A DNA stretch of 32,000 nucleotides from Nitratidesulfovibrio vulgaris str. Hildenborough (GCF_000195755.1 NC_002937.3:2310001-2342000); one strand, 5' to 3'. Counted from the first letter of the stretch, positions 3,101 to 20,218 are shown. Numbers and translations are program-made. The notes: generated from the letters alone by a model not told the origin.

Positions 3101-4147
3101 TCATCGCTGTTTCTTCACTGATTTGACGAGCTTGCTGAAGTTCTTGTCCCTATGTCTTCTCTCATGCAACGACAGGGCACCGAACGCAGCCTCTTTCCGC
3201 AGCCTGATGTAGTTGTCGTAGCGCTCCTGCGAGAGAGTGCCCGCCTCTAGGGCTGCCCGCACCGCGCAGCCCGGTTCACGCTCGTGCCGGCAATCGTGAA
3301 ACCGGCATGACCCGGCAAGCCGTTCAACGGCCTCACCCACGAAACCCTCTTCCGATTCCGGGCCGATGACGCCGAATTCCCGCATGCCGGGAGTATCGAC
3401 CAGCAGCCCGCCACCGGAGAGTATGACCATCTGACGGCGCGTCGTCTGATGCCTGCCTTCCCCCGTGGCGCTCACATGCTGTGTCGCGAAAAGCTCACGC
3501 CCCAGCAGCAGATTGGTCAGCGTCGTCTTTCCGACCCCCGACGACCCTAGCAGGCAACAGGTCTTTCCCGCCTCCACCGCAGCCTTCACGGCATCCACGC
3601 CATCTCCGCTGTACGCGCTGGTTGCAATCACATCGACATCCGCCACGCTGTGCACGACTGCGACCAGCCCCTCGAGGGCTTCTGCCGAGACCATGTCCGT
3701 CTTGGTGAGCACTACAACGGGCTTCACCCCACCCTCGCGCACCATGAAGAGATAGCGCTCAAGCCTGTTGGGACAGAAATCGTAGTGGCACGACTGCACG
3801 ATGAACGCCACATCGACATTGGCTGCGATCATCTGGTGGCGCCCTGTTTGCCCTGCGGTCCTTCGCCTCAGCCATGTCCGGCGGGGCAGCACATGATGGA
3901 TGACACCAGCGGAAAGCCCTCCATGAATATCCAGCGCGACCCAATCCCCGACGCAGGGATAGTCTGCCGGGTCGTCGTGCTCATGGATGAAGCGCCCTGA
4001 CACTTCTGCCGCAATCTCACCAGCGTTTCCCGTTGCCATGCAACGCCCCCGGTCCACAGCCACGATGCGTGCCAGCGACAGGCCGTCTGCAAGCCACCTT
4101 TCTCCATGTCCGGCGAACCATTCGTCATATCCCGAATCCGATAGCAT
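3101..4147 (-). CDS. rsgA: Ribosome small-subunit-dependent GTPase A
   Basis: Circularly permuted GTPase motifs (LTKTD, then GSSGVGKTTL, then DTPGMREF). C-terminal zinc knuckle CRFHDCRHEREPGCAV. ATG at 4147, preceded by GGTGGGAG. Confidence 0.9.
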   Translation of the reverse strand: MLSDSGYDEWFAGHGERWLADGLSLARIVAVDRGRCMATGNAGEIAAEVSGRFIHEHDDPADYPCVGDWVALDIHGGLSAGVIHHVLPRRTWLRRRTAGQTGRHQMIAANVDVAFIVQSCHYDFCPNRLERYLFMVREGGVKPVVVLTKTDMVSAEALEGLVAVVHSVADVDVIATSAYSGDGVDAVKAAVEAGKTCCLLGSSGVGKTTLTNLLLGRELFATQHVSATGEGRHQTTRRQMVILSGGGLLVDTPGMREFGVIGPESEEGFVGEAVERLAGSCRFHDCRHEREPGCAVRAALEAGTLSQERYDNYIRLRKEAAFGALSLHERRHRDKNFSKLVKSVKKQR

Positions 4148-4448
4148 CGTGCTCCCACCTGTTCCGTTGCAGAACACGGCAGACAGCACTGCCGCATTCG
4201 AAGTAGAGTGACAGGTATACGACCGGTACCCACCCGACCACCTCGTAGACGCTTAGTAGTGATGCTGTAGAACACCTGTGCCCGCGCCCCCGAAGAACGC
4301 GCGGGGAGGGGGCTTGGCATCCTCACGTGGTCAGTCTATAGTCGCTCCTGTCTATCGGCCATGGTCGGCGACGACCTCACCAGAACACCCTAGCATTCGG
4401 AGTTTTTTTGAAGAATTCACTCCAGATGGAGCTTGTGCCGCACCTCCG

Positions 4449-4493
4449 GCAAAGGCTCCTGCACATCTAGCACAGGACTGCCGGAGCCTTTGC
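4449..4493. repeat. 11-bp perfect inverted repeat (GCAAAGGCTCC ... GGAGCCTTTGC) with a 23-nt spacer in the rsgA/HTH divergent region
   Basis: Arms at 4449-4459 and 4483-4493, ending ~30 nt upstream of the HTH gene start. Could be an operator or a 5' UTR stem-loop. Confidence 0.5.
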
Positions 4494-4521
4494 TCGTTCC
4501 TTATTCCAATGAGGAGGGAGC

Positions 4522-4791
4522 ATGATGGCATACCGGAACGCAGCTGCGGTACTCCCGCAGCATCTTCTGGAAGAGATACAGAAACACGTCGATGGGGCGT
4601 TCCTGTATATCCCGCGTAGACAGGAACAGCGCAGGCGATGGGGCGAGAACAGTCCCGCACGGGAAGAGATGATGCGGCGTGATGCCGCCATTGTCGCAGA
4701 CTATCTTGAGGGTGAACGCGTCAGGAGTCTCTCTGAACGCTATCACCTCTCCGACAAGGCCATCTACAGGATCATCGCAAACCGGAAGTGA
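4522..4791 (+). CDS. Small helix-turn-helix DNA-binding protein (Mor / CD3324-like family)
   Basis: 89 aa. N-terminal LPQHLLEEIQKHVDGAFLYIPRR and C-terminal HTH (VRSLSERYHLSDKAIYRII) resemble the small Mor-type activator family as I recall it. GAGGAGGGAG RBS at 4511-4520; start at the ATG at 4522 or 4525. Confidence 0.6.
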   Translation: MMAYRNAAAVLPQHLLEEIQKHVDGAFLYIPRRQEQRRRWGENSPAREEMMRRDAAIVADYLEGERVRSLSERYHLSDKAIYRIIANRK

Positions 4792-4798
4792 ACATGAG

Positions 4799-4832
4799 CA
4801 AGACCCGCCTCCGTCACCGGAAGCGGGTCTTG
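4799..4832 (+). terminator. Strong hairpin immediately after the HTH gene (10-bp perfect stem, no U-tract)
   Basis: CAAGACCCGC (4799-4808) pairs with GCGGGTCTTG (4823-4832), with a 14-nt loop. No T-run follows, so intrinsic terminator function is uncertain. Confidence 0.4.
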
Positions 4833-4926
4833 AAGCATGACGGGGCGATACGCCCTCACCCCACGCCCTACAAGGTGTCGGCGACAGGCCCCCGAGGCAT
4901 CCATCGTGATTGCGGGCGGACTCAAC

Positions 4927-4960
4927 GCAAAAGAGGCGAAGCCTTTCGGCTTCGCCTCTT
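4927..4960 (-). terminator. Rho-independent terminator of ssb
   Basis: AAGAGGCGAAGCC-tttc-GGCTTCGCCTCTT, a 13-bp perfect stem. On the minus strand it is followed by TTTTGCG. It lies 22 nt downstream of the ssb stop. Confidence 0.7.
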
Positions 4961-4981
4961 CACATCTCATGTGCTGACGCC

Positions 4982-5512
4982 CTAGAACGGCACGTCGTCC
5001 ATGCCGCTGGCTTCCGAAGGGAACGCCGGGCCGAGGTCGTCGTCATAGGCCTGGTTGCCCATGTCGTTGTTGCGGTTCTGCTGGCGACCGCCCTGCCCAC
5101 CCTGACCGGATTGGCCGCCACGGCCGCCGGTGGGATTGAACGAACGACGGGGCGAACCGCCGTCTTCGCCCTGTTGCGCAGCCTCGCCACGACGGTCGAG
5201 GAACTGCACGCGCTGCGCCTTTATCTCCGTGCTGTACCTGTCCTGCCCCTGCTGGTCCTGCCACTTGCGTGTCTGCAGGCTGCCTTCGACAAAGACGAGG
5301 CTACCCTTGCCGAGGAAGTTGGCGCAGTTCTCGGCGGCACGCTGGAACACGACGACGGTGTGCCATTCGACACGGTCGACCTTGTTGCCTTCACGGTCGA
5401 CGTAGCTTTCATCAGTGGCGATGCGCAGGTTGGCGATGGGGGTGCCGTTCTGGGCATAACGCAGTTCGGGGTCTCGCCCGAGTCTTCCGATAATCATCAC
5501 TTTGTTGAGCAT
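4982..5512 (-). CDS. ssb: Single-stranded DNA-binding protein
   Basis: MLNKVMIIGRLGRDPELRY...WHTVVVF OB-fold, a Gly/Gln-rich linker and an acidic tail ending DDVPF. ATG at 5512, after GAGAGGA. Confidence 0.95.
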   Translation of the reverse strand: MLNKVMIIGRLGRDPELRYAQNGTPIANLRIATDESYVDREGNKVDRVEWHTVVVFQRAAENCANFLGKGSLVFVEGSLQTRKWQDQQGQDRYSTEIKAQRVQFLDRRGEAAQQGEDGGSPRRSFNPTGGRGGQSGQGGQGGRQQNRNNDMGNQAYDDDLGPAFPSEASGMDDVPF

Positions 5513-5551
5513 GGTATCCTCTCGAGGGCGGCACACCGCCCGGTTATCATT

Positions 5552-5917
5552 CTAGGACGCGGGAGCGAGGCGTTCGAGTTCGTCGAGAGCGGCTTCGATT
5601 TCGTCGCTCAGACGATTGGCCTCACGCGGATTCCACTCTGCAAGGGCCTCTTCGAGGTTCGCCTTGAGAACGGCAGCGCGTTCTATCCCCTGCCCCAGCG
5701 CCTTGCGCAGGGTGTCGTTCCACCCGGCGAAGTTGCAGGCGTCGTCGAGAGCCGCGACCAGCTGAAGCACACCGCCGCCGTCAGGCCCGACCGGGCCGTC
5801 AGGCCACACGAGTGTGGTCAGACGGGGCCATGCTTGCAACACTTCCTCTTCCCGGAAGGTCGATGCCGAAACCCTGATCTGCAAATATCTGCCCACGGCT
5901 ACTCCCGTTCCTCCCAC
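5552..5917 (-). CDS. Hypothetical protein (acidic, helical C-terminus), last gene of the carboxylase cluster
   Basis: The ORF starts with GTG at 5917, overlapping the upstream gene by 19 nt. GTG at 5896 is an alternative, placed 5 nt after GGGAG. I recognise no domain. The sequence is protein-like (LEEALAEWNPREANRLSDEIEAALDELERL). Confidence 0.5.
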   Translation of the reverse strand: MGGTGVAVGRYLQIRVSASTFREEEVLQAWPRLTTLVWPDGPVGPDGGGVLQLVAALDDACNFAGWNDTLRKALGQGIERAAVLKANLEEALAEWNPREANRLSDEIEAALDELERLAPAS

Positions 5918-17251: not shown

Positions 17252-17595
17252 GGGGCCTCCTGCGAGCGAGATGAAAGCGATACGGCACCTCTTCCATACT
17301 GCCACGAAGGCGCGCACGAAGGTGCCCGGCGGGGAGATGTGCACGCCAAGCCCTACCCCGCCGCCGTCGGCGAAGCAAGTCTCCAACAGTGTCAGACACA
17401 TCTGCCGCGCTGCAGACACAGGACGCACACGACGCATGAAGGCGCACGTACTGCCCTGTACGCCGGGGCGTCCGGCTTCCATCCCGGTTCTTACCGCCCT
17501 CACGGCCCACACCGGCCCAGACAGGATACAGACAGGGTACGGCATAAGTGATGACAACCGCACCCTGCCGGGTTAGGTAGCCGCACGGAGAACGC

Positions 17596-18765
17596 ATGAC
17601 CCACAACACCGACATCATCATCCTCGGCGCGGGGGCCTCAGGCCTCATGTGCGCCATGACCGCCGCCACGCGTGGACACCGCGTCACCCTCGTCGACCAC
17701 GGCGGCAAGCCCGGACGCAAGATACTGGTGGCAGGCGGCGGCAAGTGCAATTTCACCAACACCGAGGTCGGCCCCGACGACTACGTGGGCCGCAACGCCG
17801 ATTTCTGCCGTTCGGCGCTTGCCCGCTTCTCGCCGTGGGAGATGGTCGCCCTTCTCGAAGAACATGGCGTACCGTGGGAAGAACGTGACCACGGGCAACT
17901 CTTCTGCCGACGTTCCGCAGCCGATGTGGTCGAGGTGCTCACCAGCCGCTGCCGAGACCTTGGCTGCCGCTTCGAGATGGGCCGCATGGTGACAGGCGCG
18001 CGCCGCGATGCAGATGGCTTCATCATCGACTGCGAAGGTACACGGCTTGCGGCGTCGCGTCTCGTGGTCGCCACAGGCAGCCCCGCATGGCCGCAAGTGG
18101 GCGCCAGCGACATCGGGCACCGCATCGCCCGCAGCTTCGGGCATCGCATCGAACCTGTCCGGCCCGTCCTCGTACCGCTGGTGATGCCCGAAGGCTGGCA
18201 GCTTGGCGGCTTGCAGGGCATCAGCCTCGAAGCGGGCATCTCTACGGGCGGTGTCACCTTCGTACGCGACCTGCTGTTCACCCACCGGGGCGTCAGCGGC
18301 CCCGCGGCGCTTCTGGCCTCGTGCCACTGGCTGCCCGGTATGTCGCTACAATTCGACTTCCTGCCCGGTGTGGACATCCCCGCACTGTGCGAAAGCCCCG
18401 ACCATCGCCGCCAGCTGGTACGCACCATGCTGACACGCCTGCTTCCTGAACGACTCGCCACGCGCCTCATCCCCGAGGACCTCGGTGGACGCAAGGCGGC
18501 TGAACTTTCACGCGCCGACCGCCAGCGCCTTGCAGATGCCGTAAGGTCGCATACCGTCGTCCCCACTGGCACGGAAGGGATGCGCAAGGCGGAAGCCGCC
18601 GCCGGAGGAGTGGATACGGGCGAGGTGTCGTCGCGCACCATGGAAAGCCTGAAGATGCCGGGACTCTTCTTCAGCGGAGAGGTGCTTGACGTGGCAGGGC
18701 ATCTCGGCGGCTACAACCTCCACTGGGCGTGGGCCAGCGGCAGGGCCGCAGGCGAGGCCATCTGA
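17596..18765 (+). CDS. HI0933/YhiN-type FAD-dependent oxidoreductase (BaiN/RdsA family)
   Basis: N-terminal Rossmann motif (DIIILGAGASGLMCA), GRKILVAGGGKCNFTN and C-terminal GGYNLHWAWASG. GGAG RBS 6 nt upstream. Confidence 0.85.
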   Translation: MTHNTDIIILGAGASGLMCAMTAATRGHRVTLVDHGGKPGRKILVAGGGKCNFTNTEVGPDDYVGRNADFCRSALARFSPWEMVALLEEHGVPWEERDHGQLFCRRSAADVVEVLTSRCRDLGCRFEMGRMVTGARRDADGFIIDCEGTRLAASRLVVATGSPAWPQVGASDIGHRIARSFGHRIEPVRPVLVPLVMPEGWQLGGLQGISLEAGISTGGVTFVRDLLFTHRGVSGPAALLASCHWLPGMSLQFDFLPGVDIPALCESPDHRRQLVRTMLTRLLPERLATRLIPEDLGGRKAAELSRADRQRLADAVRSHTVVPTGTEGMRKAEAAAGGVDTGEVSSRTMESLKMPGLFFSGEVLDVAGHLGGYNLHWAWASGRAAGEAI

Positions 18766-18873
18766 AGCCATCCCCCGTGGCGGGCTAGAGGACCTGCACC
18801 CGTCTTGGCGGACAAGGGCGTCCATGGTAGATGCATAGAAGAAATCTATTCATCAGACATGGAGTCATAGACG

Positions 18874-19197
18874 ATGCAGATACTGATCATCCTGTCGAGC
18901 AGCGACCCGGAAATCAAGTGGAACGCCGTTCGCTTCGGCAACGTCCTGCTGGGCGAAGGCGACGACGTGACCATCTTCCTCAACGGCCCTGCGGTCGACC
19001 TTGCCGCCGGTGACAGCGCCACCTTCCCCATCGCCGAACAGGCGAAGCTGTTCTCGCTCAGCGAAGGCGTTCTCGCCGCCTGAGGCAAGTGCATGGGCAT
19101 CCACGGTGTGGATGCGGAGACCTCGCTTGCCCCGCTTTCCAACATGAAGTTCCTCACCGAACAGGTTCGCAACGCGGACAGGATTCTCAACTTCTGA
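18874..19197 (+). CDS. DsrE/DsrF-like family protein with in-frame UGA (predicted selenocysteine, U-G-K-C motif), 107 aa
   Basis: The 69-aa ORF ends at the TGA at 19081-19083, but the same frame stays open for 37 more codons to the TGA at 19195-19197. Of these, 30 of 37 end in G/C (hand count). The joined protein ...SEGVLAA-U-GKCMGIHGV...FLTEQVRNADRILNF matches the DsrE-family layout, where homologs have ACGxC. A SECIS-like hairpin follows the UGA. Confidence 0.8.
19084..19131 (+). promoter_or_regulatory. Bacterial SECIS-like recoding stem-loop immediately 3' of the UGA
   Basis: Core 7-bp perfect stem: GCATCCA (19097-19103) pairs with TGGATGC (19109-19115). The apical loop is CGGUG and contains GU. 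An outer helix pairs GGCAAG (19084-19089) with CTTGCC (19126-19131). The apical loop lies 21-25 nt after the UGA. Confidence 0.6.
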
Positions 19198-19200
19198 TGC

Positions 19201-19236
19201 ATGCGGCCCAGCTGCGCCATCGCAACCGGGCCGCAT
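19201..19236. terminator. Hairpin between the convergent selenoprotein gene and cbiB (possible bidirectional terminator)
   Basis: ATGCGGCCC (19201-19209) pairs with GGGCCGCAT (19228-19236), with an 18-nt loop. There is no clear U-tract on either strand. Confidence 0.3.
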
Positions 19237-19255
19237 TGCCTACCATAGGCCCCGT

Positions 19256-20218
19256 TCACCACGGAACGCCGAAAATCCAGCCCGCCAGCAATGCTGCCAG
19301 CCACAGGGTCACCGCCCCGGCAAGCCCCGCCAGCCGAAGATGGCGCAGGAGTCCTTCGATACGCGGGCCGTCCCACTGTGTACCTGCGGGGCCGAGCAAG
19401 GGTTTCTCCTTAACCTTGCCGAAATAGACGGCACTGCCGCCCATATAGGCCCCGTGCAGCCATGCGGCAGCCGCCATGGGCCACCCGGCATTGGGACTTT
19501 CCATGCGCCGCGCATCGGACGCCACGCGCGGCAACCCGGGCCACTGCCCCGGAACCCCGGCGAAGGGGGCCGTCACCCACAGCAGCACCACGCAGCACCG
19601 CGCAGGCACCCATGCCAGCACGTCGTCGAGGCGGGCACAGGCCCATCCGAGACGTTCCCATCTCTCGGTGCGGTAGCCCCACATGGAGTCCATGGTGCTC
19701 ACGGTCTTGTAGCACCACAGCCCTACGGGGCCACCTGCCACCAACCACAGGAAAGGGGCCACGAAGCCGTCATTGAAGTTCTCGGCAAGGGTCTCGGCCA
19801 GTGCGCGACGCAGACCGTCACGGTCGAGGGCCGACGTATCGCGACTCACCAGCATGGCAAGCGCAGCGCGCCCCTCTTCAAGGCTTCCATGTTCGACGGC
19901 ATGCAGAGCCGCCCTGCCCTCACGCAGCAGGCATCCCAGCGCAAGGCCCGCATAGGCCAGCCACAGCGAGACGAGCGCACCCACCACGGGAAGTGCGCCT
20001 GCAAGGGTGACTACCACACCCGCGCATAGCACAGCCAGCACCGTGCATACCACCCCGGCGGGCCGTGTCGCACCAAGGGCCCTGCCCAGTCGCTCCAGCG
20101 GCCCTAGCAGATGTCCGATAGCCCTCACGGGGTGCGGCAGCCAGCGGGGGTCGCCCGCCAGCATGTCCAGAACGAACGCAATGGGCGGCAGCCACAGCAG
20201 GGTGTCGAAGCTTGTCAC
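19256..20218 (-). CDS. cbiB: Adenosylcobinamide-phosphate synthase
   Basis: LDMLAGDPRWLPHPVRAIG signature and multiple TM segments of CobD/CbiB. Start assigned to the GTG at 20218, which overlaps the trmL stop as GTGA and gives 320 aa. The upstream 137 codons of the ORF run antisense-free through trmL and are not protein-like. Confidence 0.85.
   Translation of the reverse strand: MTSFDTLLWLPPIAFVLDMLAGDPRWLPHPVRAIGHLLGPLERLGRALGATRPAGVVCTVLAVLCAGVVVTLAGALPVVGALVSLWLAYAGLALGCLLREGRAALHAVEHGSLEEGRAALAMLVSRDTSALDRDGLRRALAETLAENFNDGFVAPFLWLVAGGPVGLWCYKTVSTMDSMWGYRTERWERLGWACARLDDVLAWVPARCCVVLLWVTAPFAGVPGQWPGLPRVASDARRMESPNAGWPMAAAAWLHGAYMGGSAVYFGKVKEKPLLGPAGTQWDGPRIEGLLRHLRLAGLAGAVTLWLAALLAGWIFGVPW

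Follow-up and report, generated by a model that had tools for sequence, protein, structure and literature searches.

The window analysed here, one strand of 32,000 nucleotides, carries at 18874..19197 what we consider, with a probability of about 0.93, to be a complete gene for a DsrE-like (YchN-type) selenoprotein of Desulfovibrio vulgaris. On this reading the in-frame UGA at 19081..19083 is recoded as selenocysteine (Sec) 70 with the help of a conserved hairpin, and the product is a protein of 107 aa. The gene has 107 codons followed by a terminal TGA, and all features described below lie on the plus strand.

This gene has already been catalogued within a known family, and the present result is a re-discovery and not a new finding, since the identical protein was published as a selenoprotein in 2006. 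The family “DsrE-like protein, UXXC” was defined in a study of the Sargasso Sea, together with a predicted SECIS element (Zhang, Fomenko and Gladyshev 2005, PMC1088965), and “DsrE-like” is one of eight selenoproteins reported for D. vulgaris (Zhang et al. 2006, PMC1794560). Supplementary file 4 of the latter gives, under “#DsrE-like >Desulfovibrio_vulgaris”, the sequence MQILIILSSS...LAAUGKCMGIHGVDAETSLAPLSNMKFLTEQVRNADRILNF, with U at position 70. The 107-aa translation of the window is identical to this sequence. Gene, Pfam family and U-x-x-C motif are the same as in the two publications, with no difference between them. A preliminary description of this DNA had stated that Sec-containing DsrE-like proteins were predicted in deltaproteobacteria, and this statement was exact. 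Reviews from 2022 and 2026 list the family (representative WP_014524487.1) among the bioinformatically identified selenoproteins, with functions largely unknown.

The public annotation presents a different picture. The 69-aa product that ends at the UGA is an exact match of AAS96708.1 / UniRef100_Q729W2 from Nitratidesulfovibrio (Desulfovibrio) vulgaris Hildenborough, and the flavoprotein encoded upstream is an exact match of AAS96707.1 / WP_010939509.1 from the same strain. Public records carry the 69-aa form as “sulfur reduction protein DsrE”, which bears out the suggestion that the gene is mis-annotated as a fragment. In long contigs with the gene order of the window, the 69-aa gene is called together with a separate in-frame ORF of 34 aa that starts at Met74. 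A literature search under the guessed locus tags DVU2234-2236 returned nothing.

In terms of gene layout, translation from the ATG at 18874 reaches the TGA at 19081-83 after 69 aa. A putative Shine-Dalgarno-like GGAG, read from the sequence, lies at 18861..18864, 9 nt 5' of the ATG. Beyond the UGA, a further 37 codons (19084..19194) stay open in the same frame up to the TGA at 19195-97, and this C-terminal tail is absent from the public annotation. Codons ending in G or C make up 30/37 of the tail, and 19/36 and 13/36 when it is read in the two alternative frames; the corresponding counts are 59/69 for the N-terminal part and 304/389 for the upstream flavoprotein gene. The ORF at 19089..19427 is in a different frame from the selenoprotein gene. 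The preliminary description had reported the 69-aa ORF with its 37-codon extension, the 30 G/C-ending codons and the frame of the overlapping ORF, and all three were reproduced here.

None of these features surpasses chance when the window sequence is taken alone. At the composition of the window (64.3% G+C), a 37-codon open stretch has a chance of about P = 0.48. The local fold reaches -25.7 kcal/mol with z = -1.29, and 22/200 shuffled sequences were as stable. Significance comes only from cross-genome comparison, and the case for recoding thus rests on the other genomes.

We scanned one genome per species with N-terminal peptide patterns only, which gave 36 loci, and all of them were matched across residues 1-107 by tblastn. 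Because the loci were found through N-terminal patterns only, conservation of the tail is an independent observation. Column 70 holds a stop in 35 of the 36 other species, always TGA, and a TGC in the remaining one (L036). With the window included, the stops at the Sec column are TGA in 36/36 cases, with no TAA or TAG. The true terminators of the same genes are more mixed (TGA 20, TAG 11, TAA 5), and given this usage the probability of 36/36 TGA is about 6e-10, a value to be read with the compared genomes being mostly Desulfovibrionaceae and not independent samples.

The tail itself behaves as coding sequence. Among the 31 indel-free genes it contains no in-frame stop, versus 53 and 37 stops in the other two frames. 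Variation by codon position is 0.28, 0.29 and 0.47, with the third position being highest, and the median dN/dS is 0.33 in the tail and 0.21 in the N-terminal part. These sequence comparisons indicate that the tail is a translated part of the protein under purifying selection.

We found 312 relatives among 5.8 billion proteins, almost all with a length of exactly 69 aa and named either “sulfur reduction protein DsrE” or [quoted passage not shown]. Only a few relatives are full-length, with 106 aa. Among these, P0001, P0004 and P0005 have Cys at the UGA column, and the full-length Cys relatives keep the tail pattern GKCM-H-V...NMK-L...AD(K/R)I. In the case of P0002, the protein record has Trp at the Sec column and its DNA has TGA. 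An exhaustive profile search added about 100 remoter relatives (E up to 1e-10), mostly of about 106 aa.

When 74 of these distant full-length homologs were aligned, both cysteines of the A-C-G-T-C motif proved at least 90% conserved. They form a nearly invariant C-x-x-C, and the Sec column corresponds to its first Cys. The U-G-K-C centre of the window protein (codons 70-73, TGA GGC AAG TGC, 19081..19092) aligns with this family motif. The UGA column is TGA in the Sec-form genes and Cys in at least 90% of these homologs. This agrees with the earlier claim that the UGA falls on the first Cys of the DsrE-family motif. The related proposal, that Cys homologs should extend over the entire protein and carry Cys in the UGA column, found support in P0001, P0004, P0005 and L036, and in at least 90% of the 74 distant homologs.

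Pfam assigns the read-through protein, with the UGA read as Cys, to DsrE (PF02635) over residues 1-107 and profile positions 1-116 of 116 (E = 2.5e-7; 31.3 bits against a cut-off of 22.7). The 69-aa fragment remains below the threshold, with E = 0.22. No NCBIfam model reached its cut-off; the sole match was YedF, below threshold.

As for the RNA, the predicted SECIS hairpin occupies 19097..19115, within codons 75-82. Its 5' arm spans 19097-19104, its loop GGU 19105-19107 and its 3' arm 19108-19115. The perfect inner pairing joins GCATCCA (19097-19103) with TGGATGC (19109-19115) around a loop CGGTG. The stem begins 13 nt and the loop 21 nt from the UGA, with no indels affecting this spacing in 36 genes, and the loop distance falls inside the range of 16-37 nt that the bSECISearch model reportedly uses.

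The first 48 nt from the UGA form a gapless alignment of 33 distinct sequences, and an 8-bp helix between columns 17-24 and 28-35 is paired in 92% of cells. Four of the eight pairs show two-sided change (19-33, 20-32, 21-31 and 17-35). Pair 19-33, for instance, occurs as A-U in 14 sequences, G-C in 6 and C-G in 5, and is unpaired in 8/33; pair 17-35 is unpaired in 12/33. Compensatory cells number 18, compared with 3.2 ± 1.5 in shuffles, and 0/500 shuffles reach the observed value. When the 3' partner was slid as a control, pairing fell to 25-52%. RNAalifold likewise reports columns 18-24 with 28-34 as the sole consensus helix.

The codons that build the hairpin show the same constraint. Among 55 conserved degenerate codons, only His77 (CAC in 31/31) and Val79 (GUG in 31/31) are free of synonymous variation, and these two codons make up the upper end of the stem. 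Outside the hairpin, 52/52 conserved codons vary synonymously, and the wobble base of Gly78, in the loop, varies freely with an entropy of 1.53 bits. Furthermore, residues 76 and 80 are coupled via the stem, with Ile accompanied by Asp-GAU, Val by Asp-GAC and Leu by Glu-GAG. The stem is a clear case of an RNA structure shaping the protein sequence at residues 76 and 80.

The loop reads GGN, widening to CGGNG when the closing C-G pair is left unpaired, and G25 and G26 are invariant in the 33 sequences. A small apical loop containing guanosine is the criterion described for bacterial SECIS elements (PMC1088965). The hairpin has such a loop, which is a weak sign by itself as the Gly codon also forces G-G.

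The Cys forms gave a control that is only partly clean, because two of the four (L039 and L042) retain part of the stem. The hairpin is lost in L036 and L040. Of the stem, 5 bp remain in L039, a close relative, and 7 bp in L042, there with a loop CAU.

Taken as predicted from the aligned sequences, the inner hairpin is a conserved and covarying SECIS element. The preliminary description had pointed to a SECIS-like inner hairpin 13 nt after the UGA, and this part was strengthened by the conservation, the covariation and the frozen synonymous sites. It had also described an enclosing GGCAAG/CTTGCC helix (19084-89 with 19126-31, span 19084..19131). This outer pairing is present in the single-sequence MFE fold of the window and is not conserved in other genomes, as neither the folds of the 35 other genes nor the consensus structure contain it; we rejected it as a part of the SECIS element, and it is probably not functional. 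No Rfam family reached its gathering score in the window, and a permissive scan gave only a chance match to naRNA4 (E = 0.51).

In bacterial Sec decoding, the SECIS element recruits SelB-GTP-Sec-tRNA(Sec). The ribosome would meet the UGA at 19081-83, where the mRNA hairpin 13 nt downstream probably acts as the bacterial SECIS. SelB-GTP-Sec-tRNA(Sec) would be recruited by the predicted hairpin, Sec inserted and translation continued to the stop at 19195-97.

The genes selA, selB, selC and selD were not found within the 32-kb window, and a tRNA scan of the window gave no tRNA(Sec). The literature places this machinery in the same organism. Sequences of D. vulgaris SelA and SelB are given in supplementary file 3 of Zhang et al. 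(2006, PMC1794560), and the same paper lists SelD, FdhA and other selenoproteins for D. vulgaris. Strain Hildenborough also has a crystallised selenoprotein, the [NiFeSe] hydrogenase. With SelA, SelB, SelD and this hydrogenase reported for D. vulgaris, the genome, according to the literature, thus has the Sec machinery that the preliminary description had wished to see confirmed. Its proposal of Sec insertion at 19081-83, leading to a 107-aa U-x-x-C protein, is upheld by both the comparative evidence and the published sequence.

For the fold, the Cys homolog P0001, which is 75% identical, was modelled as a proxy for the window protein using AlphaFold with the 74-sequence alignment. The model has a pLDDT of 98.2, compared with 54.8 when an alignment of 4 sequences was used. 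Residue 70 ends the strand 66-70 and is followed by helix 71-76. The tail contributes helix 71-76, strand 86-88, helix 90-99 and strand 102-105, which suggests, as far as the model goes, that a product of 69 aa would be unable to form the domain.

Foldseek placed YchN of E. coli (1JX7) first for the P0001 model, with TMq 0.84, followed by DsrE/DsrF-like proteins and 2HY5_A (DsrE of DsrEFH) with 0.78. When the family profile was compared with the PDB, YchN 1JX7 was matched with E = 4e-9 and its C-K-T-C aligned with U-G-K-C; a search of the PDB with the single sequence gave nothing meaningful, and the profile was needed. YchN, deposited as a hypothetical protein, also shares the C-terminal DKV-TF strand (...DKVLTF). 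It differs in having Cys in place of Sec, about 25% identity, a length of 117 aa and small insertions. The product is a single-domain alpha/beta protein of 107 residues from the YchN branch of the DsrE superfamily: YchN is the best profile and fold match, the C-x-x-C sits at a strand/helix junction and the C-terminal strand is of the DK(V/I)xxF type.

The fold is also common to TusD (YheN, 2D1P) and DsrE (2HY5), the catalytic subunits of the TusBCD and DsrEFH sulfur relays. Both differ from the selenoprotein in carrying a single Cys in place of C-x-x-C and in forming heterohexamers with F/H or C/B subunits, and their profile E-values are weak (0.009 and 0.27). No ORFs for DsrE/DsrF/DsrH-type partners were found in the window neighbourhood or among the 25 most recurrent Pfam families of 130 neighbour ORFs. 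Because of this lack of adjacent partner-subunit genes, the gene is not filed as DsrEFH/TusBCD. Another related family is SaoD (the CD2369 family; Haft 2022 preprint, 10.1101/2022.07.06.499078), which has an invariant CxxC. SaoD is reported as never being a selenoprotein and as belonging to a nine-gene SAO neighbourhood, whereas the gene in the window encodes a selenoprotein without a conserved neighbourhood; this comparison was made by description only.

The family profile places the Sec column opposite the Cys that stands at chain position 90 in TusD (2D1P). We take this residue to be TusD Cys78, the persulfide-accepting active-site residue, after subtraction of a 12-residue tag. By the P0001 model, Sec70 and Cys73 lie where the strand ends and the helix starts, at the site of both the family C-x-x-C and the active-site cysteine of TusD/DsrE.

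As for the chemistry, we consider the chances about even that Sec70 makes the nucleophilic attack in a selenol/thiol centre for redox or sulfane-sulfur chemistry, in which Cys73 would be the resolving residue and a selenenylsulfide would form. The main alternative, which we judge rather unlikely, is a pure sulfur/selenium carrier similar to TusD/DsrE, where a persulfide or selenosulfide on Sec70 is passed to a partner with no U-x-x-C redox cycle. The alignment of the Sec column with the active-site Cys of TusD and the fold match to DsrE 2HY5_A are both in line with a carrier, and the characterised members of the DsrE family are sulfur-transfer proteins. Against this, conservation of the second Cys reaches at least 90% in the YchN-like family, while the TusD match has no second Cys three residues on. 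Partners of TusBC/DsrFH type, or TusA/DsrC genes, were not seen beside the gene, here or elsewhere, and in the literature the family is grouped with U-x-x-C redox motifs. In one genome (L034) the motif reads U-x-x-S; this variant argues against an absolute need for the second Cys, which may be dispensable, and leans toward the carrier.

In terms of genomic context, an HI0933/BaiN-type flavoprotein gene lies upstream at 17596-18765, on the same (plus) strand and separated by a gap of 108 nt. The remaining genes in the window are housekeeping or unrelated. They encode RsgA, acetyl-CoA carboxylase, MotAB, a phosphorylase-superfamily protein (PNP_UDP_1), BipA, a hydrolase and CobD, as well as a SpoU methylase, GH3, a hydantoinase, PdxA, an asparaginase and glycogen enzymes. 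We rejected the HI0933 flavoprotein, CobD, the SpoU methylase and the alpha/beta hydrolase as partners, each being adjacent to the selenoprotein gene in 0/36 other species.

A Pfam census of the 130 nearest neighbour ORFs revealed no broadly recurrent family. The commonest families are specific to clades: response regulator (7), SpoIIE (6) and MltA (5). In one Solidesulfovibrio-like clade, an upstream ORF of 123 aa with no Pfam match accompanies a downstream MltA gene. In a more distant clade, a CGGC-domain gene adjoins the selenoprotein gene.

The preliminary description had suggested the flavoprotein as a possible redox partner, and this suggestion was not sustained. A dedicated redox pair, co-transcribed with the HI0933/BaiN-type flavoprotein, appears very unlikely to us: the shared strand, the 108-nt gap and the lack of a terminator-like site between the two genes agree with it, but the flavoprotein gene lies within 6 kb in 0/36 other species and no FAD-oxidoreductase occurs among the recurrent neighbour families. 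A scan of 17300-19500 detected neither promoter nor terminator signals, which speaks neither for nor against co-transcription. The selenoprotein gene is a stand-alone gene, and its adjacency to the flavoprotein is local to N. vulgaris.

Lastly, a genuine stop at the UGA, leaving a 69-residue protein or a decaying pseudogene with tail and hairpin arising by chance, is hardly credible: a 37-codon open tail is expected about half the time in a single sequence, the hairpin of the window is not unusually stable and the public annotation is of 69 aa, but the stops at the column are TGA without exception, the tail is open and under purifying selection in 31 genomes, the Cys homologs are full-length, the hairpin covaries, and the 69-aa fragment, which is short of two strands and two helices of the fold, scores below the Pfam cut-off.

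Recoding of the UGA to Sec70 thus remains our reading of this gene. To the published record, the present analysis adds 35 further species-level genomes with TGA, a quantified covariation of the SECIS element, a confident fold model and a gene context that is not conserved. The GenBank and UniProt records of this model sulfate reducer, along with hundreds of homologs from genomes and metagenomes, still present the protein as a fragment of 69 residues, and gene callers sometimes add a spurious ORF of 34 residues for the tail. A model built on the SECIS alignment and the U/C column could serve to correct the truncated records. The remaining value lies in fixing this persistent mis-annotation and in the biochemical role of the U-x-x-C protein, which is testable as D. 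vulgaris Hildenborough is genetically tractable.

The gene is found mainly in Desulfovibrionaceae and related sulfate reducers. With Sec70 placed where TusD/DsrE have their persulfide-carrying cysteine, the protein could conceivably be a stand-alone selenium-based carrier of sulfane sulfur (or selenium), or a reductase, a proposal that we regard as unlikely. If true, this would be a sulfur-relay site in selenoprotein form, and the substrate of the protein could connect the use of selenium with sulfur metabolism in these organisms.

The hairpin (window 19097-19115) downstream of the UGA leaves a mark on the protein it lies within. In alignment A2, which covers the first 48 nt from the UGA across the homologous genes, column 19, the first base of codon 76, forms a base pair with column 33, the wobble position of codon 80, within codons 75-80 of the gene (window 19096-19113). 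As a result, Ile76 occurs with Asp80 encoded by GAU, Val76 with Asp80 encoded by GAC, and Leu76 with Glu80 encoded by GAG, so that the SECIS stem imposes the covariation of two protein positions.

At the Sec column, one 107-aa database entry (P0127) has Arg at position 70 and is otherwise identical to the window read-through product. Its source is an ENA metagenome contig of 559 nt, and the Arg implies that this contig has CGA in place of the TGA at window 19081-19083. Either a sequencing error or natural variation with loss of Sec could account for the difference. In either case, the entry shows independently that the frame is continuous. For several contigs of the window's species, the public gene calls contain a separate 34-aa ORF (L044:10220-10324, equivalent to window 19093-19197), which is the in-frame selenoprotein tail starting at Met74. 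The selenoprotein gene is broken into two spurious entries in those calls.

In the genome of Solidesulfovibrio alcoholivorans DSM 5433 the gene is present as two paralogues on two scaffolds (L012:6001-6318 and L019:6001-6318), both with TGA at the Sec column and the hairpin.

In terms of gene neighbourhood, the Solidesulfovibrio-like clade shares a conserved ORF directly upstream on the same strand (L002:262-633, L006:5457-5828, L013:5495-5863 and L020:2402-2770), which encodes about 123 aa (MAEDFRTLLME...) and lacks a Pfam match, and an MltA-like gene downstream. This synteny is restricted to that clade. In a more distant clade, made up of several Cys forms and a single Sec form, the DsrE-like gene (L038:460-789, L040:5646-5975, L041, L042:84-413 and L043) adjoins one for a CGGC-domain (PF08821) protein, and in L040 a YcaO gene (3688-5643) lies upstream of it. 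This neighbourhood may reflect a functional link; it is absent from the window's genome. There, the selenoprotein gene converges with a minus-strand CobD/CbiB gene, with the two stops only about 58 nt apart (window 19198-19256), and a consensus scan of this interval found no hairpin resembling an intrinsic terminator.

Finally, the second Cys of the motif is missing in 1 of 36 sequences. This is the Sec form of Desulfosarcina sp. OttesenSCG-928-A07 (L034:92-409), which reads U-G-K-S as opposed to U-G-K-C, with TCC replacing TGC. If this U-G-K-S motif is real, a resolving Cys would not be strictly required.
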